In this document: positions 24,344 to 52,008 of the stretch, piece after piece
Numbering within the stretch: position 1 is the stretch's first letter
Layout of the letters: every line of letters begins with the position of its first letter
The notes under the pieces: model-generated
Database searches by the model: none
Seen by the model: the letters and a program-made list of their open reading frames with translations, nothing else
Told to the model about the DNA's origin: nothing
Program-made: the position numbers and the translations under genes
NCBI GenBank assembly: GCA_030610655.1
Contig: JAUWRG010000001.1
Span: 175-64,174 of the forward strand
DNA length: 64,000 nucleotides
Reading direction: 5' to 3'
DNA from: Dehalococcoidia bacterium
Lineage (GTDB): Bacteria; Chloroflexota; Dehalococcoidia; E44-bin15

Positions 24344-26449
24344 ATGGCAAGAAAACTGGTTATCGTGGAATCGCCTGCCAAGGCAAGAACGGTGAGCCGG
24401 ATGCTGGGAAAGAGCTATAGCGTCAAGGCCTCCATCGGCCATGTACGAGATCTGACGAAGTGGAGGTTAGGGGTGGATGTCAAAGAAGGCTTCAACCCCA
24501 GGTACGAGGTTCTCAAGGAGAAGAGAGCGGTGGTGCGGGAGATAACAGAGGCGGCAAAGAATGCTTCCTCGGTATACCTCGCTACCGACCCCGACCGTGA
24601 GGGCGAGGCGATCTCATGGCATCTGGTTCAGGCAGCCAAGTTGAATAGCGCAAAGCGTGTGGTTTTCCATGAGGTCACCAATGAGGCAGTGGCGGAGGCA
24701 TTCCGCCATCCCAGAGACATCGACATGGATCTGGTCTATTCTCAACAAGCGCGCCGTATCCTCGATAGACTGGTAGGTTATAAGCTCAGCCCCTTCCTGT
24801 GGCGCAAGGTAAGGCGTGGCCTCTCCGCAGGGAGAGTACAATCGGTAGCGTTGAGAATGATCGTTGACCGGGAGCGAGAGATAGAGAGCTTTATTCCACA
24901 GGAGTACTGGTCCATCGATGCCAAGCTGGAAAAGGCCGCTACGAAAGAAAGCTTTATAGCTTCTCTCGTCGGTCTCACCAGTGGCAAGAAAATCAAGATT
25001 GGCAGCGAACAAGATGCAAAAAAGCTTTGCGCCGAGCTTGAGAACGCAAGCTATGCCGTATCCCAGGTACAAAAGAAGGAGGCATTTCGTCAACCAGCGC
25101 CACCCTTCACCACCAGCACCCTACAGCAGGAGGGTTGGCGCAAGCTCCGCTTCACCGCCAAGCATACCATGGCCATCGCCCAGCAACTCTATGAAGGCTT
25201 ATCTATCGGCGAGGAAGGGTCAGTGGGGCTCATCACCTATATGCGCACCGATTCAGTGAGAGTGGCCCCATCAGCCTTGAATGAAACTCGCGCCTTTATC
25301 AAGGAAAAATACGGGGACAAATTCCTCCCCCCCAAACCTCGCATCTTCACCAAGAAGGCGAAAGGCGCTCAGGAGGCCCATGAGGCCATCCGTCCCACAT
25401 CGGTAAGGCGAGAGCCATCCTCAGTGAAGCACCATCTCAACAGGGACCAATTCAGGCTCTACGAGCTCATCTGGAAACGAATGGTTGCAAGCCAGATGTC
25501 GCCGACCATACTCGACACCATATCGGTAGACATAGAGGCAATAGATGGAAATTCCTATCTACTCAGGGCTAAGAGCTCGGTGGTAAAGTTCCCCGGCTTC
25601 GCAATCCTTTATAGCGAGGGCAAGGATGAGGCCGAGGATGAAAAGGCGGTGCCCCCCCTGCCTGAGTTGGTAAAGGGCGAATCCCTGAATCTTCTAGGGC
25701 TTTTCCCCGAGCAGCATTTCACCCAGCCTCCACCTCGCTACAGTGAGGCGACCCTGGTTAAGGCGCTGGAGGAAAGGGGGATCGGTCGCCCCAGCACCTA
25801 CGCCCCAACCCTTTCTACAATTCAGGACAGAAGCTACGTTGAGCGTATTGACGGTCGGTTTCACCCCCTTGAGATTGGCTTTGTGGTGACCGACATCCTT
25901 ATCGAACATTTCCCTGACATTGTTGACCTTGGCTTCACCGCTCAGATGGAGGAGGAATTAGACCAAATCGCCCAAGGTGAGAGGGGATGGGTTCCTTTTC
26001 TTCAAGATTTCTACGGCCCCTTTGAAAAGACCCTGAAGACCGCAGATGAGCGATTGGAGAGAGTCAAGGTGGAAGAGGAGACCACGGATGAAGTCTGTTC
26101 AATTTGCGGCAGACCTATGGTCATCAAGTGGGGGCGCTACGGCAAGTTTCTCTCCTGTTCAGGCTACCCAGAATGCAAGAATGCCAAGCCCTTTTTGGTC
26201 AAGACCGGCGTCAAGTGTCCCAAGTGCGGTGGTGAAGTGGTGCAGAAGCAAAGCAAGAAAAAGCGCTTCTTCTATGGCTGCGCCAACTACCCGGATTGTG
26301 ACTTCATTACCAGCAACAAGCCTATTCCTCAGCCCTGTCCTCAGTGCGGAGGGCTGCTTGTGATACAGGGCAAAAAGAGAGCGAAATGCCTCAAATGCGA
26401 AGCCAGCGTCAGCCTGGATGAGATAGAGAGGGAGGCAGTCAAGGTATGA
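24344..26449 (+). CDS. topA: DNA topoisomerase I
   Basis: N-terminal TOPRIM (LVIVESPAKARTV), catalytic Tyr region, C-terminal Cys4 zinc ribbons (CPKCGG, CPQCGG). Confidence 0.95.
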   Translation: MARKLVIVESPAKARTVSRMLGKSYSVKASIGHVRDLTKWRLGVDVKEGFNPRYEVLKEKRAVVREITEAAKNASSVYLATDPDREGEAISWHLVQAAKLNSAKRVVFHEVTNEAVAEAFRHPRDIDMDLVYSQQARRILDRLVGYKLSPFLWRKVRRGLSAGRVQSVALRMIVDREREIESFIPQEYWSIDAKLEKAATKESFIASLVGLTSGKKIKIGSEQDAKKLCAELENASYAVSQVQKKEAFRQPAPPFTTSTLQQEGWRKLRFTAKHTMAIAQQLYEGLSIGEEGSVGLITYMRTDSVRVAPSALNETRAFIKEKYGDKFLPPKPRIFTKKAKGAQEAHEAIRPTSVRREPSSVKHHLNRDQFRLYELIWKRMVASQMSPTILDTISVDIEAIDGNSYLLRAKSSVVKFPGFAILYSEGKDEAEDEKAVPPLPELVKGESLNLLGLFPEQHFTQPPPRYSEATLVKALEERGIGRPSTYAPTLSTIQDRSYVERIDGRFHPLEIGFVVTDILIEHFPDIVDLGFTAQMEEELDQIAQGERGWVPFLQDFYGPFEKTLKTADERLERVKVEEETTDEVCSICGRPMVIKWGRYGKFLSCSGYPECKNAKPFLVKTGVKCPKCGGEVVQKQSKKKRFFYGCANYPDCDFITSNKPIPQPCPQCGGLLVIQGKKRAKCLKCEASVSLDEIEREAVKV

Positions 26450-27390
26450 TCCCTCTTCTGTATAACACGGAAATCACGGATAGATTGCTTCAAAGTTACA
26501 TCCGCTATCTGGAGGTGGAGCGCAATGCCTCCCCCTATACTGTGCGCAACTACATCCATGACCTTCGCCACTTCATGGAGTTCCTCGGCACAGAGAAGGT
26601 GACAACGCTGGATGAGGTGGATCGCCACCTGCTGCGCCGCTATATCGCCTTCCTCTTGGAGAACGGATTCGAAAAGACAAGCGTAGCACGTAAAGTGAGC
26701 GCCTTGCGCTCTTTCTATCGATATTTAATAAGGGGGAACATCGTCTCCTCAAACCCACTCGCTACCATCTCCTCACCAAAGCTGGAACAGAGGCTCCCCT
26801 CGTTCCTCTCCGGCGAAGAGGTTATTCACCTGGTGGAAGCACCTGATATCTCGACCCCACTGGGGCAGCGGGATAGGGCGATACTAGAGCTTTTCTATGC
26901 CTCCGGGCTCAGGGTAAACGAGGTTGTTAGACTCGACGTAAGCAATGTCAATTTTGAAGAACGGGAGGTTCGCGTATGGGGCAAGGGCTCCAAGGAGCGC
27001 ATAGTGCTCATAGGCAAGCCTGCAGCATCAGCCCTCGTTGTCTATCTTCGTGAAGGTCGTATACGGCTTCTTGGCAAGTCAAGGACTGAAGCCCTTTTCC
27101 TCAATCGATACGGGAAGAGGCTCTCCGAGCGCGCCCTCCAAAAGTCGCTGGCAAGGTATGCCATCAAGGCAGGTCTTGATAAACGGGTTCACCCCCATTT
27201 GTTACGCCATAGTTTTGCCACTCATCTTCTCGACGGCGGTGCCGACCTTCGGGTGGTTCAGGAGCTTCTCGGTCACGCCAACCTCTCATCTACCCAGATC
27301 TACACCCACGTTACCCAGAGCCAGGCGCGTAAGGTGTATCTGGCTGCCCACCCCAGAGCGGAGAAAGACGAAGGAGATAAAGACCGATGA
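26446..27390 (+). CDS. xerC: tyrosine site-specific recombinase XerC/XerD family
   Basis: R..HxxR..Y catalytic motifs (LRHSFATHLL, LGHANLSSTQIYTHV); sits in the conserved dprA-topA-xer synteny. Confidence 0.85.
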   Translation: MIPLLYNTEITDRLLQSYIRYLEVERNASPYTVRNYIHDLRHFMEFLGTEKVTTLDEVDRHLLRRYIAFLLENGFEKTSVARKVSALRSFYRYLIRGNIVSSNPLATISSPKLEQRLPSFLSGEEVIHLVEAPDISTPLGQRDRAILELFYASGLRVNEVVRLDVSNVNFEEREVRVWGKGSKERIVLIGKPAASALVVYLREGRIRLLGKSRTEALFLNRYGKRLSERALQKSLARYAIKAGLDKRVHPHLLRHSFATHLLDGGADLRVVQELLGHANLSSTQIYTHVTQSQARKVYLAAHPRAEKDEGDKDR

Positions 27391-27815
27391 AAATCCTGCT
27401 GATCCACGGACCGAACCTGAACATGCTGGCCAAGAGAGATACGGCGCTGTACGGTGACAAGACCCTCACCGAGATCGATTCCCTAGTGAAAAAAAGGGCC
27501 CAGGAGCTGGGTGTCGAGGTCTTAGCCTTCCAGTCGAACAGCGAGGGGACACTAATAGACTTCATCCAAGCCGAATGCCCCAAAGCAGATGGAATCATCA
27601 TCAACCCCGGGGCACTGACCCATTATGGTTACTCGCTTCGGGAGGCCCTGGTTGATAGCGCCCTCCCGGTGATCGAGGTCCATCTATCAAACATCTACGC
27701 CCGTGAGGAGTGGCGTCACAAATCAGTAATCGCGCCCATCGCCAGGGGCCAGATCAGCGGGCTTGGCTGGCGGGGCTGTGTTGCCGCCTTGGAGATATTG
27801 GCCGCAGAAATATAA
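27387..27815 (+). CDS. aroQ: type II 3-dehydroquinate dehydratase
   Basis: MKILLIHGPNLNMLAKRDTALYG N-terminus and HLSNIYAREEWRHKS signature. Confidence 0.9.
   Translation: MKILLIHGPNLNMLAKRDTALYGDKTLTEIDSLVKKRAQELGVEVLAFQSNSEGTLIDFIQAECPKADGIIINPGALTHYGYSLREALVDSALPVIEVHLSNIYAREEWRHKSVIAPIARGQISGLGWRGCVAALEILAAEI
27753..27812. repeat. aroQ 3'-end segment duplicated downstream of the toxin-antitoxin cassette (left copy)
   Basis: ATCAGCGGGCTTGGCTGGCGGGGCTGTGTTGCCGCCTTGGAGATATTGGC versus ATAGCGGGCTTGGCTGGCGGGGATATGTTGCCGCCTTGGAGATAGTGGC at 28745-28800. Confidence 0.75.
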
Positions 27816-27825
27816 AAGTATAAGA

Positions 27826-27857
27826 AGACCGCTGAAAAACTGTGTTTTCAGCGGTCT
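27826..27857 (+). terminator. perfect 13-bp stem hairpin immediately downstream of aroQ (possible terminator; no U-tract)
   Basis: AGACCGCTGAAAA-ACTGTG-TTTTCAGCGGTCT. Confidence 0.4.
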
Positions 27858-28132
27858 CAAAAGGCTTTGTTTAGGCAGTGGAAAAACTGCCCATCTGAAG
27901 GGATGCTGATCAAAAGGAAGCCCTTTTCAGCGCCCCAAGGGAAATACGTCTGTCACATTGTCCAAAGTAGTGCACAAACATCATACAATTCTCCATTGCA
28001 GTAAGTGCTTATACGATGCCTCACGATGCTATGGATATATGGGCAAGGGGTTTCCCAACTTGAGCTAGCGTGGGTTGCTTCTGTTGATAATCATGTGTAA
28101 AATATTGTGGAGTATAGAGCGGGGGTTCTAAT

Positions 28133-28384
28133 ATGCCTAAGAAAGTGATACAGGTTCCTATCGAGCAAGAGTTGCTACACGCTCTTGATTTATTATCAAA
28201 GAAGCGCCGTCAATCTCGATCAGAACTTATTCGAGAAGCCTGCCAACGATATCTAAGACAAATAGAATCTGAGCAGCTAGATGAGGTCTATAAAGAGGGA
28301 TATAGAAGGCTACCCGAGGAGTCATCTCTGGGGCAGGGGCAGGTGAGTCTAGCGACTCAGATTCTTCCTCAGGAGTCTTGGTAA
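28133..28384 (+). CDS. ribbon-helix-helix family antitoxin (MazE/CopG-like)
   Basis: 83 aa; RHH-type N-terminus (KKVIQVPIEQELLHALDLLSKKRRQSRSELIREA); stop/start TAAATG junction with the downstream toxin gene. Confidence 0.65.
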   Translation: MPKKVIQVPIEQELLHALDLLSKKRRQSRSELIREACQRYLRQIESEQLDEVYKEGYRRLPEESSLGQGQVSLATQILPQESW

Positions 28385-28699
28385 ATGCATCGTGGTGAGG
28401 CATGGTGGGCAAATTTGCCTCCTCCTATTGATAGACGACCGGTGCTTTTGCTTTCCAGAGAAAGTGCTTACCAAGTGAGAACCTCCATTACTGTAGCTGT
28501 TATTACTCGCACCATTAGAGACATCCCCGTAGAGGTACCACTAGGGCTAGAGGATGGTATGCCTAATCAGTGTGTGGTGAATCTTGATGATATCTTAACT
28601 ATACCAAAAGCTTTGCTTAGTGAGCGAATCACCGTTTTATCTGACGCCAAGATGGCTCAAGTTATTAAGGCGATTGCCTTTGCTTTAGACCTAGGTTAG
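28385..28699 (+). CDS. MazF/PemK-family mRNA interferase toxin
   Basis: 104 aa; the RGEAWWANLPPPIDRRPVLLLSRES pattern is typical of the PemK/MazF fold. Confidence 0.65.
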   Translation: MHRGEAWWANLPPPIDRRPVLLLSRESAYQVRTSITVAVITRTIRDIPVEVPLGLEDGMPNQCVVNLDDILTIPKALLSERITVLSDAKMAQVIKAIAFALDLG

Positions 28700-28744
28700 G
28701 GAAAGAGGTTTCCAATCCTTCACAGAGTGAAGGAGAAGAGATCT

Positions 28745-28800
28745 ATAGCGGGCTTGGCTGGCGGGGATATGTTGCCGCCTTGGAGATAGTGGCAACAGAG
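28745..28800. repeat. degenerate duplicate of the aroQ 3' end (right copy), downstream of the MazEF-like cassette
   Basis: See 27753-27812. Confidence 0.75.
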
Positions 28801-28866
28801 AAGGCAAAACCTCATGAGCGCTTGCACACCATCAAATCATGAAAATTTGCTGGCTAGATACCGTTC

Positions 28867-28952
28867 GTGGTCCTTCTGCGGAAGGATGTCGAACCATGAA
28901 CGACCCTTCGACAGGCCTGTCCTGAGTTCATCGAAGGGATCAGGGCGAACGG
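28867..28952. repeat. intergenic repeat copy R3 (internal module only)
   Basis: TCCTTCTGCGGAAGGATGTCGAA...CAGGCCTGTCCTGAG...TCGAAGGGATCAGGGCGAACGG parallels the interior of the 51896-52008 element. Confidence 0.6.
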
Positions 28953-28981
28953 AATAAATCTATTGTAGGAACAAAATAGTA

Positions 28982-30040
28982 ATGAACGACCGCCTGGAAA
29001 AGCTGCGTCGCAAGATTGCCAGTGACGGACTGGATGCCATCCTCATCTCCCAGGGGGAGAACCGCCGCTATCTCAGCGGCTTCACCGGCTCGGCAGGCTT
29101 TCTCCTCATATCAGAGAAGAGCGCCATCTTGGCAACCGACTTTCGCTACACCGAGCAGGCGAAAAACCAGGCGTCCGATTTTGACATCGCCCGGATTGAG
29201 GGGGAGATGCAAAAGTGGTTCCCCAAACTCATTTCCTCGCTCGATGCGAAAAGAATAGGATTTGAAGCAAACGACCTTTCCTTTTCAACCTACCAGCAGC
29301 TCATGACGGCGGCGGGTGAGAAGGAACTCGTGCCCACTGAGGGATTTGTAGAGTCGTTGCGCGCCATAAAGGACGATAAGGAACTGGAGCTTATTACCAC
29401 GGCAGTGGAAATCTCCGATGCCGCATTCAACGAGGTCGCCTCGACTATCTGCCCAGGCATGACCGAAAAGCAGGTAGCATGGGAGCTGGAGAAAGCAATG
29501 CGCCAAAATGGCAGCGAACCCATGCCCTTCGAGATTATCGTAGCCTCGGGGCCAAATGCCGCCCTCGCCCACCACAAACCCACCGAGCGCACCATTCTTC
29601 AAGGTGAGCCGGTTATCATCGATATGGGGGCACGCATTGAGGGCTACTCCAGCGATCTGTCCAGAACCATTTGCCTTGGCAACCAGGACGAGGTTTTTGG
29701 TAAAATATATCATCTAGTTCTTCGCGCCCAGCTTGCCGCTATCGCCGCTGTCGAGGCGGGGATGAGTGGAGAGGAGGCAGATGGGCTCGCCAGGACGGTC
29801 ATCGAACAGGGAGGCTATGGGGATAATTTTGGACATGGACTGGGACACGGAGTTGGCCTTGCTCCCCATGAACAGCCTCGTCTGGGGAAAGGCTCTAAGG
29901 ATATTCTCACCGAAGGCATGGTATTCACCATCGAGCCGGGTATTTATATCAGCGGCTGGGGCGGGGTGAGGATCGAGGATACGGCGGTTCTGGAGAATGG
30001 CAAAACGAGGGTGCTCTCCAAAGCGAAGAAGACAGGTTGA
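28982..30040 (+). CDS. pepP: M24 family Xaa-Pro aminopeptidase
   Basis: Creatinase-like N-domain plus M24 pita-bread metal ligands (HGLGHGVG, IEPG). Confidence 0.85.
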   Translation: MNDRLEKLRRKIASDGLDAILISQGENRRYLSGFTGSAGFLLISEKSAILATDFRYTEQAKNQASDFDIARIEGEMQKWFPKLISSLDAKRIGFEANDLSFSTYQQLMTAAGEKELVPTEGFVESLRAIKDDKELELITTAVEISDAAFNEVASTICPGMTEKQVAWELEKAMRQNGSEPMPFEIIVASGPNAALAHHKPTERTILQGEPVIIDMGARIEGYSSDLSRTICLGNQDEVFGKIYHLVLRAQLAAIAAVEAGMSGEEADGLARTVIEQGGYGDNFGHGLGHGVGLAPHEQPRLGKGSKDILTEGMVFTIEPGIYISGWGGVRIEDTAVLENGKTRVLSKAKKTG

Positions 30041-30116: not shown

Positions 30117-30677
30117 ATGATCAGCACTGGTGAGCTAAAGAAGGGGATAACCATCGAGCTGGACGGTGAGCTTTACCAAATAATCGACTGGCAACATATC
30201 AAGGTAGGGCGAGGCAGCGCTCAGGTCAGGCTCAAGCTCCGCGATATTCGAGCAGGGCACACCATCGAGCGCACCTTCCAGGCAGGCGAGAAGTTTCCTC
30301 GAGCCAGATTGGACCGCAACACGGTGCAATTCCTTTACAACGATGGCGACCTATACTACTTCATGGACTCGGAAAGCTTCGAACAGTCCACGCTCAGTGG
30401 TAAGCAGGTCGGCGATGCCATCAACTACCTCAAGGAAGGTATGTCTCTAGACATACTTACCTACAAGGATGAACCGATAAACCTGGAGCTTCCCAACTCT
30501 GTGGAGCTTGAGGTTGTGGAAACCGACCCTGGCTTCAGAGGTAATACAGCAACTGCGGCGAACAAGCCAGCCAAGCTGGAAACAGGAATCACCATTCAGG
30601 TCCCTCTCTTCGTAGACAAGGGAGACATCGTCCGTGTTGATACTCGCACTGGCGCATACCTTGAAAGGGCAGGCTAG
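30117..30677 (+). CDS. efp: translation elongation factor P
   Basis: 186-aa EF-P with the KPGKGxA-loop equivalent (IKVGRGSAQVRLKLRD). An ATG at 30117 is preceded by a GAGGG RBS; the ORF track's 29997 start is an unlikely N-terminal extension. Confidence 0.9.
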   Translation: MISTGELKKGITIELDGELYQIIDWQHIKVGRGSAQVRLKLRDIRAGHTIERTFQAGEKFPRARLDRNTVQFLYNDGDLYYFMDSESFEQSTLSGKQVGDAINYLKEGMSLDILTYKDEPINLELPNSVELEVVETDPGFRGNTATAANKPAKLETGITIQVPLFVDKGDIVRVDTRTGAYLERAG

Positions 30678-30697
30678 ATGCAGGTATATTCTGTTAT
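30675..30697. repeat. left copy of a 22-bp direct repeat flanking the inserted island (efp stop + ancestral xseA start)
   Basis: TAGATGCAGGTATATTCTGTTA versus the right copy TAGATGCAGCTATATTCTGTTA at 36646-36667; one mismatch. Confidence 0.8.
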
Positions 30698-30736
30698 GAC
30701 GAAATGGCGGCCTCAAAAATTGGAGGCTAATTTACA

Positions 30737-33361
30737 ATGGCCTTGCATAGCATACTAAAATCAAAAGTTGCTGAATGGGAAAAATCTAATTATACCTCAG
30801 ATTATCCCGTTATTTCTGAGATTTTCAATTACAATCAAAATCCTGAAACTCAGAACTTGCCCTACTTACGAAAAGCCCAGTTTGAAGCCCTTGAAACTTA
30901 CTGGTATTTAAGACTTGTGGAGAAAACCCCTCACATTTTTGAACTCCATAATAGATTGTATCCTAATCCTTTAGATTTTCTGAAAGTCCTCGGAATACCC
31001 ACCGAGAATCAGGAAATTTTAGGACTGGCTTTAACAGGTGGCACAGACAGGATAATTGACCAGATAAGGACAAATGATGAGTTTGTAAAGAGGCATGGAC
31101 TTGAGACTGTAAGGGAAACTTTGACCCTTGAATATCCCAGTTATATCCTAGCTTTGGCAATGGGAGCAGGTAAGACCATCTTGATCGGCACAATTATCGC
31201 TACTGAATTTGCAATGGCTCTTGAATATCCAGAGAATAACTTCGTCAAAAATGCCCTAGTATTTGCGCCGGGTAAGACAATATTAGGAGCATTAAAGGAG
31301 TTATCGGATGTTCCCTATGAAAAAATATTGCCTGAAAGGCTTTATAAGCAGTTCATAACTACCACAAAATTTACCTATACCCGCGATGGCGAAAAAGACA
31401 TCCCGATAATCAAAGGCTCAAGTTTTAATATCGTAGTAACCAATACCGAAAAGATTAGAATACAAAAACACTCAATAACCAAATCCCTAATTAGAGATTT
31501 ATTTGTTGACCCATCCCGGGAAGATGAGGTAAAGGAGGCGATAGCCAATCAGAGATTGCAAACAATTGCCTCGCTTCCAAATCTTGCTATCTTTTCTGAT
31601 GAAGCACACCATACCTATGGACTGGCACTCGGTGAAGAACTGAAGAGAGTGAGACAAACAGTTAATTATCTGTCAGAAAAGACAAATGTTTTAGTTGTGA
31701 TAAACACCACGGGAACCCCATATTATAAAAGGCAGATCCTTAAAGATGTTATTTATTGGTATGGGCTATCACAAGGAATAAAAGATGGAATATTGAAAGA
31801 AGTCCGGGGCAATATTGTATCTTATCCAGAAGTAACCGACAAAGATTTCCTAAAAGATATTATCGCCGATTTCTTCAAGAATTATAAAGATGTAAAAATC
31901 TATGACGGCAGTCCTTCTAAACTGGCAATATATTTCCCCAAAATAGAGGATTTAAAGAATGCCAAACCAGTTGTTGAGAAAAACTTAATAGAACTCGGTT
32001 TAGACCCTTCTGTTATTTTAGAAGTCCATAATGAGTCAAAACAAGAGGTTAAGGATTTATTTGATAACCGAATAAATGACCCTCACCTACCTTATCGCAT
32101 ATTTCTTCTTGTTAATAAAGGGACTGAGGGATGGAACTGCTTATCCCTCTTTTCTACTGCCTTAGCACGCAAACTGACAGCAAGTAATAACTTTTGCCTT
32201 CAAGCCACCTCCCGCTGCCTCAGGCAAACTCCCGGCAATATACACAAGGCAAAAATATACCTTTCCAAAGATAATGTCGGAATTTTAGACGCCCAACTTA
32301 AAGAGACCTATGGTGAAACTCTTGAAGATTTAAATAGAACTTCACAAGATATGAGAGAGGATAGACTAATTTTGAGGAAAGTAGAAATACCACCTGTTTT
32401 ACTCAAAAAGAAGATTCGAAAAGTTCTGCCTAAAGAAGTGCTGTCAGATATTAGTCAAATGGAGTTTAAGAAGATTGAAGGAGAAAAAGAGAAGTTTAGA
32501 AAGACTATCCATAGCCTTGATGACATTCCTCAGAGGAAGGGAGTCTTAATTTTTGTAAGAGAAGAGGAGATAGAAATTATTGAAGATTTCGTGGATAGTT
32601 ATACCTTTGCTGTGGAACTATCAAGCCTTTATCGCCTACCCCTTATGTTAATATACGACAAATTGAAGGAGTTGTATCCCGAAGGCGAGATTCCTGAAAG
32701 CGATGCCATTGAACTTAAAAGGCAAATAGAAGAGCAAGTGCGAAACTACGAAATAAAAGAGGAAGAGGTAGAATTTGCCCTTGCTCTCATAAGACCCGAG
32801 GGCTTCAATAAGGAGGAAAAAGACGGCAAGAGTATATATGTAACCGAGATAGTCTATCATAAAGACAAGGAGAAATACCTATTAAAGTGGGATGAGTTTA
32901 AAGATAAATTTAAGAGAGACTTCGGCTTCCACTATAATCCCTATAAATTCGATTCTTCTCCTGAGAAGGAATTTTTTACCTGGCTTCTTGAAAACTTGAA
33001 CGAAGACCCGGCAGATGTTGAAGACATCTATTATACCGGTGGTATGGATGACCCCAATAAGACAGACTTTCTCTTTGAATATAAGGCTAAAGATGGCAGG
33101 TATCATAACTATGCACCTGATTTCCTGATAAGAAGAAAAAGTGGGAAAATAATAATTGTGGAGGTAAAAGCAGAGCGCTTCAAAGATGAAGAGAAGGAAA
33201 AGGAGATGAGAAGGATTGAAGGGCTAAACCCTGATAGATTAAAGTATGAAATTGTAGAGACCAAAGGTGAACAGCTAGCTTTTGAGGGTTTAAATAAAGT
33301 TAGAGAAGCAATCTATGAGTATGGCAGTAAAGGGGTAAATAAGAATGCTTACTCAGTCTGA
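30737..33361 (+). CDS. Type III restriction Res-like SF2 helicase with a C-terminal PD-(D/E)xK nuclease motif
   Basis: Motif I AMGAGKT, motif II FSDEAHH, motif III NTTGTP, motif VI QATSRCLRQ, and C-terminal PDFLIRRK...IIIVEVKAE. AT-rich codon usage unlike the flanking genes. Confidence 0.7.
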   Translation: MALHSILKSKVAEWEKSNYTSDYPVISEIFNYNQNPETQNLPYLRKAQFEALETYWYLRLVEKTPHIFELHNRLYPNPLDFLKVLGIPTENQEILGLALTGGTDRIIDQIRTNDEFVKRHGLETVRETLTLEYPSYILALAMGAGKTILIGTIIATEFAMALEYPENNFVKNALVFAPGKTILGALKELSDVPYEKILPERLYKQFITTTKFTYTRDGEKDIPIIKGSSFNIVVTNTEKIRIQKHSITKSLIRDLFVDPSREDEVKEAIANQRLQTIASLPNLAIFSDEAHHTYGLALGEELKRVRQTVNYLSEKTNVLVVINTTGTPYYKRQILKDVIYWYGLSQGIKDGILKEVRGNIVSYPEVTDKDFLKDIIADFFKNYKDVKIYDGSPSKLAIYFPKIEDLKNAKPVVEKNLIELGLDPSVILEVHNESKQEVKDLFDNRINDPHLPYRIFLLVNKGTEGWNCLSLFSTALARKLTASNNFCLQATSRCLRQTPGNIHKAKIYLSKDNVGILDAQLKETYGETLEDLNRTSQDMREDRLILRKVEIPPVLLKKKIRKVLPKEVLSDISQMEFKKIEGEKEKFRKTIHSLDDIPQRKGVLIFVREEEIEIIEDFVDSYTFAVELSSLYRLPLMLIYDKLKELYPEGEIPESDAIELKRQIEEQVRNYEIKEEEVEFALALIRPEGFNKEEKDGKSIYVTEIVYHKDKEKYLLKWDEFKDKFKRDFGFHYNPYKFDSSPEKEFFTWLLENLNEDPADVEDIYYTGGMDDPNKTDFLFEYKAKDGRYHNYAPDFLIRRKSGKIIIVEVKAERFKDEEKEKEMRRIEGLNPDRLKYEIVETKGEQLAFEGLNKVREAIYEYGSKGVNKNAYSV

Positions 33362-33818
33362 GGCAGATGCTTTAATCGATATGCGAAAGAAACTCGCCAA
33401 AAAAGAAGTGTATAATTTCCCTCCGGCTGGCGAAATATTAACTATTCCTATTATCTCTGTGGACGAAAGGGAATCTTTCTTGATAGATATAAACAGAGGA
33501 AGCATCAGGCTTACCAAATGCACTTATCAGGAACGCTACCAGAGGATAATTACCCTCGTGCGTCTTGATATCGATGGACCTCCACATCCTAATCCAGAGG
33601 TGGTGAATATTCCATTTCCTCACCTTGAACCCTATAACGGACAGACGATACCTTGTCCCCATTTACACCTCTATGTGGAAGGATTTATGGATAAATGGGC
33701 AATTCCATCTCCGTCTGAGAAATTTCCAAGAACAACCGACCTCGTTGCAATTCTAGCCGATTTCTTCCGCTACTGTAACGTTGTTGAACTACCGGCAATA
33801 CAAAGGGGGATGTCTTGA
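33345..33818 (+). CDS. hypothetical protein (157 aa), translationally coupled inside the res-mod-like operon
   Basis: Overlaps the upstream stop by 17 bp and the downstream start by 4 bp. I recognise no motif. Confidence 0.5.
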   Translation: MLTQSEADALIDMRKKLAKKEVYNFPPAGEILTIPIISVDERESFLIDINRGSIRLTKCTYQERYQRIITLVRLDIDGPPHPNPEVVNIPFPHLEPYNGQTIPCPHLHLYVEGFMDKWAIPSPSEKFPRTTDLVAILADFFRYCNVVELPAIQRGMS

Positions 33819-34582
33819 TTTTAAAAGACTGTCAAGATTTGGTTAATGCTTATATTGAATGGCTTCAACAGAGAATTAACGTAGAAGATATAAAAGGAGT
33901 TTGTGAGATTACCACCCCCTTTGTTGATAGACACAATGACCAGCTACAGATATATGTCAAGCCTTCTAATAATAGGCTCATTCTTACAGATGATGGCTAT
34001 ACCATTAAAGACTTAAAAATAAGTGGATTTGAAATTACAACTGAAAAAAGACGACAAATACTCTATTCTATATTAAATGGTTTTGCTGTCCAACTTCATG
34101 GAGATGAGCTTACTGTGGAAGCAACGCCGGATAACTTTGCCCAAAAAAAGCATAATCTTATTCAGACTATGCTTGCGGTAAATGACCTTTGGACTATGAC
34201 TGAACCAATGGTAGCAAGCCTTTTTAGAGAAGATGTAGAAAGATACTTGCGCGAGCATAAAATCCGATTTACTCCCTCAATCAAGTTTGCTGGAAAGAGC
34301 GGTTTAGACCATTCTTTTGATTTTGTAATTCCGGCTTCGCCTGTAAAACCAGAAAGAATACTCAATGCCATTAGCAATCCGACACGGCAAAATATCTCCT
34401 TGCTAATCTTTTCTTGGACTGAGATAACAGAAGTGAGAGCACCCGATTCTACTGCCTATGGAGTTTTAAATGATACAGAGAAACAGGTAAGTCCTGATCT
34501 TATTGATGCACTCCAGCGGTATTATATTAGACCTATACAATGGAGCCGTAGAGCTGAGTATGTTGAGGAACTCGCATCATAA
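33815..34582 (+). CDS. hypothetical protein (255 aa) resembling DUF1828/DUF1829-type proteins
   Basis: The motif EITTPFVDRHNDQLQIYV...LILTDDGYTIKDL matches my recollection of the DUF1828 N-terminal signature. Not verified. Confidence 0.45.
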   Translation: MILKDCQDLVNAYIEWLQQRINVEDIKGVCEITTPFVDRHNDQLQIYVKPSNNRLILTDDGYTIKDLKISGFEITTEKRRQILYSILNGFAVQLHGDELTVEATPDNFAQKKHNLIQTMLAVNDLWTMTEPMVASLFREDVERYLREHKIRFTPSIKFAGKSGLDHSFDFVIPASPVKPERILNAISNPTRQNISLLIFSWTEITEVRAPDSTAYGVLNDTEKQVSPDLIDALQRYYIRPIQWSRRAEYVEELAS

Positions 34583-34593
34583 GGGATAAGGCT

Positions 34594-36603
34594 ATGGCTG
34601 AGAATAAAATCAAGATTACCCCCGCTAAAGGGCGACCAATGCTTCACTGGGTGGGCAAAAAGCCTTCGGATTATGTAAAAGGCTTCCCTACTCAACTTGT
34701 TGAAGTTTTTGACCCGTTGAATAATGGGCAGAGAATTGAAACGCCGACTTACGATGAACTAAAAGACAACTGGCAAAACTTACTCTTTCACGGTGATAAC
34801 AAAGATGTTTTAGCCACACTTCTTGAATTAGGATTTAGGGGAAAGATTGATTTAATTTATATTGACCCGCCATTTAAAAGCGGCGCTGATTATGTAAGAA
34901 AGATTGAACTGCGGGGATTAAAGAATTTAGGGCGAATAGAAGAAGATGAGGCGTCACTACTTCAGCAGACAATGTATTTTGATATTTGGAACAATGACAG
35001 CTATTTGCAGTTTATGTATCATAGATTGATACTTTTGAAGGAGTTATTAAGTGATGCAGGAAGCATTTGTCTGCATTGCGATTATAGACAAAATAGTTAT
35101 TTGAGATTGATAATGGATGAAATTTTTGGTGCGGATAATTTCAGAAATGAAATTATTGTGCGAAGAGGGGTCAAAAGCCTTCAAGCCCAGTTTGATATGA
35201 TCGATTCCTTATCCTCTGGTAATGACACTATCTTGGCGTATGTAAAAGATCCCAATACAAAGTTTAAAAAGTTAGAAATTGAACTTACAGAATCGCGGCA
35301 AGGGACTTGGAATAACCATTGGAGAGGCACTGATCGCCCTACGATGCGATATGAATTATTTGGGATAACACCAACACACGGCCAATGGCGATGGAGTAAA
35401 GAACGCTCAATGAACGCTATTGAGAATCATAAGGCATTTCTCAAGGTGGCAGACAAGTATTCAAGCATTGACGAGTATTATTTGGAGAAGAAAGCAGCCG
35501 GAATTGAACTAGATTTCTTGCGTCTTAACAATAAAGGGAAACCAGAACATTATGTGCCGACTACAGACATTAGACTTTCAAGTACGCTATGGACTGACAT
35601 CTCTGCATATGATAGTGGCTCTTCCTTTCAGACACAAAAAAGTGAGGAATTACTTGAAAGAATCATTGATTGGTTAACCAACCCCGGCGAACTCGTCCTT
35701 GACTGTTTCATCGGCTCGGGCACAACTGCTGCTGTTGCTCAGAAACTTGGCCGGCGATGGATTGGCTGCGATATAAACAAAGGGGCAATTCAGACGACAA
35801 GCAAGAGGTTACAAAAGGTAATTCTTGAACAGATAAAATCCCCCTCTAATCCCCCTTTATTAAAGGGGGAAGTAGGGGGATTTGCTGTTTACAAGGTCAA
35901 TGACTACGATTTGCAACTTTTAAGAACCGAGGCGATTGAACTTGCCGTCCAGCATATCGGTATTCAGAAGATAAGAACCGATGCATTCTTTGACGGATAC
36001 CTGGGGAAAAACCTAGTTAAAGTTATTGACTTCAACCATCCATTAACTCTTTTGGATTTACAACTTCTTCAAGACGAACTCAAGAAAAGACCAGATGAAG
36101 ATAGGGATATTACCATCGTCTGCCTTGGCAAAGAATTAGCCGTCGACCCCGAAATTGAAAAATGGAATAAAAAACACCCAGTAAATAAGATTAAAGTAAT
36201 TGAATTAAAAACAGATAAAAAATATGGCAGTTTCTTAATCCATAAACCAGCGGAGGCAAAGATAGAGATTCTTCCCCTTCACTTCGTTCAGGGTCAGAAT
36301 GACAGATTGGCAATAATAGAGATTCAAGATTTTATCTCACCTACCATAATTGAGCGGCTTAATATTGATAATACTCTTTTCAAAGTAAAAATCCCCGACT
36401 TTAGAAGTATGATAGACACAGTTTTGATTGACACAAATTACGATGGTAAAACCTTCCATATAGTTCATTCAGATGTTCCAAAGAGGAAAGATGACTTAGT
36501 CAAAGGAAAATATGAAATCGAGCTTCCAAAATCAAAAACAAAAGTCGCAGTAAAAATAATTGATATGCTTGGAGAAGAGATTATAAATGTTTTCGAGGTA
36601 TAA
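34594..36603 (+). CDS. beta-class N6-adenine/N4-cytosine DNA methyltransferase, Type III Mod-like
   Basis: Motif IV IDLIYIDPPFKSG precedes motif I VLDCFIGSGTTAAVA (beta circular order); N-terminal LLFHGDNKDVLATL; 669 aa. Confidence 0.8.
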   Translation: MAENKIKITPAKGRPMLHWVGKKPSDYVKGFPTQLVEVFDPLNNGQRIETPTYDELKDNWQNLLFHGDNKDVLATLLELGFRGKIDLIYIDPPFKSGADYVRKIELRGLKNLGRIEEDEASLLQQTMYFDIWNNDSYLQFMYHRLILLKELLSDAGSICLHCDYRQNSYLRLIMDEIFGADNFRNEIIVRRGVKSLQAQFDMIDSLSSGNDTILAYVKDPNTKFKKLEIELTESRQGTWNNHWRGTDRPTMRYELFGITPTHGQWRWSKERSMNAIENHKAFLKVADKYSSIDEYYLEKKAAGIELDFLRLNNKGKPEHYVPTTDIRLSSTLWTDISAYDSGSSFQTQKSEELLERIIDWLTNPGELVLDCFIGSGTTAAVAQKLGRRWIGCDINKGAIQTTSKRLQKVILEQIKSPSNPPLLKGEVGGFAVYKVNDYDLQLLRTEAIELAVQHIGIQKIRTDAFFDGYLGKNLVKVIDFNHPLTLLDLQLLQDELKKRPDEDRDITIVCLGKELAVDPEIEKWNKKHPVNKIKVIELKTDKKYGSFLIHKPAEAKIEILPLHFVQGQNDRLAIIEIQDFISPTIIERLNIDNTLFKVKIPDFRSMIDTVLIDTNYDGKTFHIVHSDVPKRKDDLVKGKYEIELPKSKTKVAVKIIDMLGEEIINVFEV

Positions 36604-36645
36604 TAAAGATGAAACCGCCACTTCATGTGGCACGGTGTAAAAGTA

Positions 36646-36667
36646 TAGATGCAGCTATATTCTGTTA
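36646..36667. repeat. right copy of the 22-bp direct repeat; contains the functional xseA start codon
   Basis: See 30675-30697. Confidence 0.8.
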
Positions 36668-50269: not shown

Positions 50270-50503
50270 TTAAGCATAGACTTTTATATTGTGCTGCTCA
50301 AGAAGTTTAGCTATTTCTGACTCGTATGGCAAACCGGTTATGTCTACGCCGCTACCTACGTAAAGTAGTTCAACGCCTATAACAGTTCCATCTTCTGCAT
50401 AGTCAATAAATCTTGTTTCATCAAGCTCCTTAGAATATGAGTAAGGTAACTTATTAATGAGGATGTAAGCACAGTCAGCATCGCGGTCATACTGGAATTC
50501 CAT
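50270..50503 (-). CDS. DUF2283-family small protein (putative antitoxin-like partner)
   Basis: 77 aa; pairs with the upstream DUF4258-like gene. Confidence 0.5.
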   Translation of the reverse strand: MEFQYDRDADCAYILINKLPYSYSKELDETRFIDYAEDGTVIGVELLYVGSGVDITGLPYESEIAKLLEQHNIKVYA

Positions 50504-50518
50504 AGAGCCTCCTTTAGT

Positions 50519-50767
50519 TTAGTCGAGAACGATAGCCGTTATGATTCTTAATGGGCTGGTATTCTTACGAACGACTACTCTAAGTCTCTTTCCGTTTTTC
50601 AAGTAGCCGACAAAACAATCATTACCTTCTTTATCCTTGTACGCTATATCATAGGAATCAAGAACGTTTTCGACTTCTGCCCTTGTTATCGCACGTTGCT
50701 TCATTCGATTCCGAGCATGATGTTGAAATTTGTAAGCTTCCCCGCCCGGTGTCTCATACACTTTCAT
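50519..50767 (-). CDS. DUF4258-family small protein (putative toxin-like)
   Basis: 82 aa; basic N-terminus (HHARNRMKQRAITRAEVENVL). Confidence 0.5.
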   Translation of the reverse strand: MKVYETPGGEAYKFQHHARNRMKQRAITRAEVENVLDSYDIAYKDKEGNDCFVGYLKNGKRLRVVVRKNTSPLRIITAIVLD

Positions 50768-51895: not shown

Positions 51896-52008
51896 GTCAT
51901 TCTGAAGGAGCAAAGCAAGGGAGGAATTTGGTTTAGATTCTTCCCCTTCACGGAGCCTGTCCTGTCCTTCTGCGGAAGGATATCGAAGGGTTCGGGGTCA
52001 GAATGACG
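51896..52008. repeat. terminal-inverted-repeat element R6 with perfect 10-bp inverted ends
   Basis: GTCATTCTGA...TCAGAATGAC with internal CCTTCTGCGGAAGG hairpin; 113 bp. Confidence 0.8.

Follow-up and report, generated by a model that had tools for sequence, protein, structure and literature searches.

How does a toxin-antitoxin (TA) gene pair without mobility genes come to lie between two essential genes that ancestrally met at a very tight junction? This question is raised by a window of 64,000 nt from contig JAUWRG010000001.1 of a Dehalococcoidia bacterium (GCA_030610655.1), whose positions serve as coordinates throughout; the loci and contigs compared with it are labelled by L-numbers (L001, L086, L088 etc.). 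Here aroQ and pepP are separated by an insert of 938 bp (27809-28746), a minimal chromosomal TA islet with an RHH antitoxin gene and a MazF/PemK-family toxin gene, flanked by two copies of the aroQ 3′ end. A first-pass annotation, made from the letters of the window, had described an element that integrated into the end of aroQ and supplied a replacement tail, with the copies as attL/attR-like repeats. We find instead that the copies are a duplication of the target's own sequence. Our preferred reading, to which we give a probability of about two in three, is an ordinary selfish TA islet that was acquired and spread by homologous and illegitimate recombination.

The insert is bounded by a duplicated gene junction

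The direct repeat comprises two 53-nt copies (27756-27808 and 28747-28799) that are identical at 48 of 53 positions (91%) and lie 991 nt apart from start to start. No comparable second repeat was found in the region, and a 53-nt match within 1.8 kb is far above chance. The duplicated aroQ tail that the first-pass annotation had reported, with an estimate of 46 of 52 identical positions, is therefore real. Its start at ATC was placed 3 nt too early, as copy 2 has TAT there; copy 1 may itself begin at 27751 (AGATC). Between the repeats the GC content drops to 0.43-0.48, compared with 0.54-0.56 outside.

Both essential genes survived the insertion, with the left copy serving as the working end of aroQ and the right copy left as a relic before an intact pepP. 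In aroQ only the last codon and the stop are new (27810-27815, ATA TAA), and the protein ends in …AAEI rather than the native …AAEKA[E/Q] (tail comparison with P0121, P0123, P0125 and P0126). It scores 175.3 against TIGR01088 (cutoff 169.85). The relic reads …GYVAALEIVATEKAKPHERLHTIKS up to its stop at 28840-28842. Since 28747-28990 aligns collinearly with the empty-site locus L001, from its aroQ tail through the spacer to the start of pepP, copy 2 is the displaced original aroQ end, and the first-pass view that the second repeat derives from aroQ was correct.

We then compared the copies between lineages. The variants private to the window are C21 and G23 in copy 1 and G43, A48 and A49 in copy 2, and L088 and L096 carry other private changes. 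As the differences between the copies are lineage-specific, and the inferred ancestors of copies 1 and 2 are identical or one position apart, the copies were identical or one position apart at formation. The repeat is thus a since-drifted duplication of the target's own sequence, with no foreign attP-borne tail, and the proposed replacement tail does not hold. Copy 2 is a decaying relic, with three substitutions specific to the window and a 2-bp insertion in L088. As a separate observation, AroQ residue 131 (27777-27779, in copy 1) is Cys in the window and a near-invariant Tyr among close homologues (TAT to TGT); the relic retains TAT at the matching codon.

The duplication probably extends about 30 nt further to the right than was seen earlier, into pepP codons 1-7. 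A local alignment of the 60 nt past copy 1 with the native junction places AGTATAA-GAA-GACCG-CTGAAAAA collinearly over AGAATAATGAACGACCGCCTGGAAAA, which is the native aroQ stop followed by pepP codons 1-7. In this alignment 22 of 26 columns match, and 17-21 of 5000 shuffles were equally good. A repeat search in L088 pairs TGGAGATATTGGCCGCAGAAATATAAGAATATAAGAAGACCGC with TGGAGATATTGGCCGCAGAGAAGGCAGAATAATGAACGACCGC. If the extension is real, the duplicated unit would start about 60 nt ahead of the aroQ stop and end at pepP codon 7, an extent that is suggestive, not proven. Table 1 lists the features of the locus.

Table 1. Features at the aroQ-pepP locus and in the island between efp and xseA (window positions).
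Feature	Positions	Strand	Evidence or remark
XerC-like recombinase gene	26446-27390		Pfam
aroQ, type II 3-dehydroquinate dehydratase, 142 aa	27387-27815	+	PF01220, 173.6 bits
Repeat copy 1	27756-27808	+	working aroQ 3′ end, codons for SGLGWRGCVAALEILAAE
Degenerate continuation of the duplication	27817-27839	+	remnant of aroQ stop/pepP start and pepP codons 1-7; ATG lost; suggestive
Hairpin, perfect 13-bp stem, 6-nt loop	27826-27838 / 27845-27857	none
Non-coding left part of insert	27858-28086	+	strongly structured fold, no conserved open reading frame
Region upstream of TA operon	28087-28132	+	presumed promoter/operator (role inferred); travels with the gene pair
RHH (CopG-type) antitoxin, 83 aa	28133-28384	+	PF01402 RHH_1, residues 6-43, 36.8 bits
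MazF/PemK-family toxin, 104 aa	28385-28699	+	PF02452 PemK_toxin, 54.1 bits
Non-coding right end of insert	28700-28746	+	junction …GAGATCTAT/AGCGGG
Repeat copy 2 and native continuation	28747-28842	+	displaced non-functional original aroQ 3′ end, …SGLGWRGYVAALEIVATEKAKPHERLHTIKS and stop
REP/MITE-like dispersed element, about 168-170 bp	28810-28978	none	between relic tail and pepP; partial copy 51964-51987
pepP, Xaa-Pro aminopeptidase, M24	28982-30040	+	PF00557/PF01321
Type III restriction Res	30737-33361
Type III Mod methylase	34594-36603
PDC-M24A/DUF6978 and PDC-M24B/DUF1828-1829 pair			in the island between efp and xseA

Occupied and empty sites in relatives

To place the insertion we scanned species-representative genomes, which gave 80 Dehalococcoidia/Chloroflexota loci, 63 of them with aroQ and pepP on the same locus. 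The gap between the two genes is at most 65 nt in 56 of these 63 relatives, and none of the 63 has an RHH or MazF match. The large gaps of L030, L068, L073 and L040 hold unrelated genes with no duplication of the aroQ tail. Empty sites with an AroQ of 91-93% protein identity are found in L001, L100 and L101. Together these relatives bear out the insertion that the first-pass annotation had proposed. Like L001, the other two are collinear with copy 2 and pepP of the window. The native junction of L100 and L101 reads GCAGAGAAGGCAcAATAATGA, with the stop of aroQ overlapping the start of pepP, and copy 2 of L088 shows the same TAATG overlap. The ancestral aroQ/pepP junction is thus very tight: the stop overlaps or abuts the start of pepP.

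The same insert with the same junctions, GCAGA/AATATAA and GATCTAT/AGCGGG, occurs in the window, in L088-90 (GCA_049643545.1 and two Logan runs) and in L096-99. Six independent contigs of the window's lineage, from different samples, and two further lineages show this arrangement. As the structure recurs in independent assemblies, an assembly artefact is ruled out.

The REP/MITE-like element upstream of pepP represents an insertion of its own and does not belong to the TA islet. It is missing from L088 and L100 and present in the L001 spacer and in L096, with copies at 564-627 in L096, 19-87 in L101 and about 5580-5640 in L097, where its 21-nt unit CACCGTTCGTGGTGAGCCCTT is tandemly expanded. 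In L001 and L086 the element lengthens the aroQ reading frame to 154 aa.

Divergence of the islet and its flanks

Identity over topA and xerC is 94.3-95.5% among the window, L088, L096 and the empty-site L101. The presence of the islet is therefore polymorphic within a star-like group that is about 5% diverged, and the empty L101 is as near to the window as the occupied lineages are. We calculated synonymous divergence (dS, Nei-Gojobori) between lineages. It amounts to 0-0.036 for the RHH gene and 0.027-0.054 for the MazF gene, compared with 0.125-0.189 for topA and xerC, 0.31-0.42 for the 5′ part of pepP and 0.41-0.53 for aroQ. The islet is thus 3-10 times less diverged at synonymous sites than its flanks and backbone, and the comparison of the TA genes with topA and xerC gives p-values of 4e-6 to 2e-3 (Fisher). 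The non-coding insert is likewise just about 3-4% diverged between the window and L096, where the tract of low divergence spans approximately 27779-28770, about one repeat-plus-insert unit. This deficit indicates that the islet is younger than the backbone and was passed or homogenised between lineages after their split.

In L088 divergence rises from 1-2% in the genes to about 7% in 27809-27975 and about 15% in copy 2, at the edges of the insert. This pattern fits an insertion of older date whose interior was converted later, and both processes may have contributed. We also observed that aroQ (27387-27750) and the pepP 5′ part (28982-29300) show dS of 0.31-0.53 versus 0.13-0.19 for topA/xerC (24344-27390). 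The immediate neighbours of the islet form a patch that is mosaic and prone to recombination.

A variant junction in L086

One locus, L086, a single 1.6-kb contig at 2.8x coverage, carries the cassette at a different junction. Its aroQ is about 90% identical to that of the window and L001-like. The order is aroQ, the host's own tail, the REP spacer and the pepP start ATGAAC, followed by the cassette from window position 27966. Over 930 nt (27983-28912) L086 is 100% identical to the window, including the copy-2 variants otherwise private to the window. The arrangement creates a 240-bp duplication, joined at the imperfect microhomology AGTA(A/G)TG(A/C)AC. In our analysis this is the signature that would be expected of one homologous anchor combined with one illegitimate join. 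The duplicated length therefore varies, from 53-58 nt (perhaps about 90) in the window to 240 nt in L086.

The toxin-antitoxin pair

Both products of the insert match their families well above the profile cutoffs (20.5 bits for PF01402 and 23.1 bits for PF02452), which confirms the RHH and MazF/PemK cargo named by the first-pass annotation. The TAAATG junction of the two genes is also as described, with TAA/ATG at 28382-28387. The PF02452 match spans positions 2-107 of the 109 in the profile. The closest solved structure to the toxin is MazF3 of M. tuberculosis (5uct, E = 3.6e-10), with further PDB matches to MazF6, EndoA and PemK, and the RPVL and ITxT motifs line up in a HMMER alignment to MazF3. 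A pairwise BLASTP comparison with B. subtilis EndoA, aimed at the conserved Arg/Thr residues of the MazF active site, was uninformative. The toxin has 1256 homologues, mostly from Dehalococcoidia/Chloroflexi metagenomes, where homologues of 74-83% identity are abundant. No NCBIfam model names the toxin, and no PADLOC defence-system model matches either protein.

The layout is that of a type II system, with the DNA-binding antitoxin gene co-oriented and directly upstream of the toxin gene, and the same pairing is found at homologous loci. As in type II MazEF/PemIK systems with RHH antitoxins, the antitoxin comes first, its stop abuts the start of the toxin gene, and the RHH DNA-binding domain is N-terminal. 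Profile scores and operon architecture place the cargo in the MazF/PemK plus RHH type II family. Solved relatives of the toxin include MazF3 (PDB 5uct/5cca) and B. subtilis EndoA (PDB 4mdx/4me7). The partner antitoxin of EndoA, EndoAI, is of RHH type. The canonical E. coli MazE has an AbrB/SpoVT fold, and the pair described here differs from canonical MazEF in its RHH antitoxin. Judging from family membership, the RHH dimer would repress the TA operon and neutralise MazF, while free MazF, presumably a sequence-specific endoribonuclease, would cleave RNA and arrest growth. The pair would thereby act as an addictive, selfish module.

The homologues of 74-83% identity are found in unrelated contexts, either between gatB and a flavodoxin-like gene or beside a nuclease-helicase gene. 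At TA loci with 80-83% protein identity in other contexts, DNA similarity to the window begins at 28087-28089. At the gatB/flavodoxin loci L091-L095 it is confined to 28087-28689, i.e. the operon and about 45 nt upstream. Three of these loci, L091-L093, were checked for flanking repeats, and none were found. Two further observations concern the pair. The 3′ half of the antitoxin gene contains an 18-nt inverted repeat (28264-28281 / 28348-28365, 89% complementary, 66 nt apart), which may be an mRNA structure. In addition, several contigs with a 78%-identical MazF (L104-L107), next to a gene for a 1134-aa nuclease-helicase (RE_NgoFVII/PLDc/SNF2), start about 150 nt or less upstream of the toxin gene, which suggests that assemblies break off where the antitoxin region is variable or repeated.

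Non-coding parts of the insert

The first-pass annotation had placed a perfect 13-bp-stem hairpin just inside the left repeat. The stem is confirmed, while the left arm overlaps the pepP-derived remnant and appears to come from the pepP 5′ end rather than to mark an element end. If the junction extension is real, the left arm would be pepP-derived and the right arm its inverted copy. On the minus strand the hairpin resembles a terminator; on the plus strand the resemblance is only weak. Its loop is ACTGTG in the window (27826-27857) versus the reverse complement, CACAGT, in L088 (4859-4890), L096 (5390-5421) and L097; between lineages the palindrome has been inverted, and its arms are still perfect.

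The predicted fold of 27809-27990 has a z-score of -4.9. An Rfam scan of 27300-29300 gave no match at E <= 1, so this structured part does not correspond to a known RNA. A 45-aa open reading frame in this part is broken by a 1-bp indel in L088. Searches of the non-coding insert parts by blastn against the window and all loci returned orthologous copies only. We also asked whether 27858-27975 could be a copy of the intergenic region with the REP element that has since diverged, and rejected this, as no significant alignment was obtained. The left part shares the 10-mer AGTAATGAAC with the pepP start; since 9% of shuffles reach it, we treat it as microhomology. The right end of the insert is the same in L088 and L086 and has a 14-bp deletion in L096/L097.

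Search for mobility features

Neither the open reading frames of the window nor the gene calls in the window, L088-90 and L096-99 revealed a recombinase or transposase within the insert, and the TA pair is the only set of plausible genes in 27809-28746. No terminal inverted repeats pair the ends of the insert, and with a duplication of at least 53 nt it does not qualify as an insertion sequence, MITE or transposon. No attC site is present; the sole hairpin, a perfect palindrome, shows none of the features of attC. The XerC-like gene that overlaps the start of aroQ scores 349 against the XerC equivalog model (cutoff 335) and falls short of the integron integrase model TIGR02249 (148.8, cutoff 265). 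By blastn, the insert DNA matched nothing in plasmid and phage collections. An exact 21-nt pattern across the RHH-MazF junction retrieved nothing in viral contigs; among metagenome contigs it retrieved the known JGI contig and a chance match (L102) only.

These results do not support the attL/attR element of the first-pass annotation: recombinase, terminal inverted repeats and attC are missing from the 938 bp in every lineage, and both the variable duplicated length and the unrelated repeat at an island 2 kb away oppose a single site-specific core.

A second island downstream

Further downstream, efp and xseA are parted in the window by a 5.95-kb island (30697-36645) with a GC content of 0.37-0.41; in L088 the two genes are directly adjacent. 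On either side of the island lies a copy of a 22-nt direct repeat, TAGATGCAG[G/C]TATATTCTGTTA (30675-30696 / 36646-36667), which consists of the efp stop and the first 19 nt of xseA, and both genes are intact. No recombinase was found in the island. An analogous junction duplication with an unrelated repeat and no recombinase points to a homology-based or illegitimate route, or to survivorship of junction-preserving events, rather than to one site-specific system.

The TA islet and this restriction-modification/defence island 2 kb downstream might share one recombinase-free mode of integration that duplicates gene junctions, an idea we regard as unlikely on present evidence. A possible form would be a small circular or linear islet that inserts by short-homology recombination, either Campbell-type or by homology plus microhomology. 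If true, selfish and defence modules could colonise overlapping gene junctions in compact Dehalococcoidia genomes with both genes unbroken, and they could also excise precisely through the repeat. Elsewhere in the window a second TA-like pair, DUF4258 (82 aa) and DUF2283 (77 aa), lies on the minus strand in a low-GC stretch (50270-50767), and no flanking direct repeat was found there.

Origin and spread of the islet

We favour an ordinary selfish TA islet. Its most likely means of spread would be homologous recombination, either by way of the core genes on its two sides or by way of the repeat. In the first integration, as in the L086 variant, one homologous anchor was probably paired with one illegitimate join at microhomology; where such a join lies within the anchor, part of the target would be duplicated. 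Several points weigh against this reading. The mechanism of the first integration is inferred rather than observed, and homology-facilitated illegitimate recombination normally deletes target DNA instead of duplicating it. The evidence from L086 comes from that one thinly covered contig, dS of the TA genes is based on just about 133 synonymous sites, and the backbone is itself mosaic. Toxicity, neutralisation and autoregulation are read from family membership only. Finally, the split of the window's private variants, with those of copy 1 in its 5′ half and those of copy 2 in its 3′ half, and the unit-length tract shared with L096 fit a reciprocal crossover inside the repeat. Such a crossover could be site-specific, with a trans-acting recombinase, or a Campbell-type integration of a 991-bp circle; the numbers are too few for significance.

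A site-specific crossover would make the islet the remnant of an integrative element with an attP like the aroQ 3′ end, its integrase since lost or the unit mobilised in trans, and the repeats would be attL and attR. A direct repeat at a gene 3′ end that leaves the gene intact is the classic footprint of such elements; tRNA/tmRNA islands, which integrases insert at the 3′ ends of genes, are of this kind, among them the ssrA islands of Dehalococcoides. Here too the insert lies between direct repeats of the 3′ end of its target, which has stayed intact, the junctions are identical in three lineages, and the variant split and the tract of 27779-28770 can be read this way. However, the variant partition is not significant (roughly p = 0.1-0.5), and the locus differs from integrase-mediated islands in having no integrase gene in any lineage, a repeat of variable length (53-58 or about 90 nt versus 240 nt in L086), copies identical at origin and hence no foreign tail, and an insert of less than 1 kb. 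The unrelated 22-nt repeat of the neighbouring island and the lack of matches in plasmid and phage DNA and, for the 21-nt pattern, in viral contigs also argue against it, and we consider such an element quite improbable. We give still less credence to a capture by the adjacent XerC in an IMEX-like manner at a dif-like core in the aroQ tail, which seems very improbable. A XerC-type tyrosine recombinase gene does overlap the aroQ start, and by eye the repeat shows a short imperfect dyad (GGCGG…CCGCC) and a TATGTT motif. Yet no convincing 11-6-11 dif-like dyad was recognised in the repeat by eye, with no formal search made, and the recombinase reaches the XerC/XerD housekeeping cutoffs and fails that of integron integrases. 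The order topA-xerC-aroQ-pepP-efp is widely conserved, including in many relatives without the insert, and the neighbouring xerC therefore reflects ancestral synteny. The unrelated repeat of the second island speaks against Xer capture as well.

The remaining alternative differs in the history of the islet: a single ancient insertion inherited vertically, with strong constraint keeping TA divergence low and empty sites arising by precise secondary deletion through the repeat. Recombination between the repeats would indeed restore an intact aroQ, all three lineages have the same junctions, and the edges of the L088 insert are more diverged than its genes. Constraint does not fit the 3-10-fold lower divergence of the synonymous and non-coding insert sites relative to backbone synonymous sites, nor does vertical descent fit the 930 nt of L086 that are identical to the window in a different lineage background, or an empty L101 as near to the window as the occupied lineages. 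We therefore judge this history to be decidedly unlikely, and prefer acquisition and spread by homologous and illegitimate recombination.

Relation to known systems

For TA islets without mobile-element genes, a spread by homologous recombination at the core genes on either side has been proposed (Belot et al. 2026, PMC13617665). Like them, the islet described here holds a TA operon only, lies between core genes, is present in some close lineages and missing from others, is younger than its flanks and has no integrase or transposase. It differs in that the footprint is kept, as a junction duplication of at least 53 nt and a displaced relic gene end, and in its uncultured Dehalococcoidia host. 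The L086 junction, with one homology-anchored side and the other joined at microhomology, is like homology-facilitated illegitimate recombination as described (PMC3240628, PMC5361080). In experiments that process usually leads to target deletion, whereas here the outcome is a duplication and the process a proposed one. An orphaned 3′ gene end downstream of an incoming module is also known from the 'C-terminal displacement' arrays of Rhs/type VI secretion system (T6SS) effector-immunity genes, in which the displaced piece is a divergent toxin tip and not, as here, a short duplicate of the same gene end. The islet is thus an already-known sort of system and not a new kind, with an unusually legible footprint.

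The locus offers a natural example of a TA module without mobility genes entering and spreading in a compact uncultured lineage. Occupied and empty sites, the target duplication, a decaying relic and the 3-10-fold divergence deficit are visible together. These results support the view that chromosomal TA pairs are autonomous selfish islets moved by host recombination, and they suggest why junction-duplicating insertions alone survive where genes overlap.

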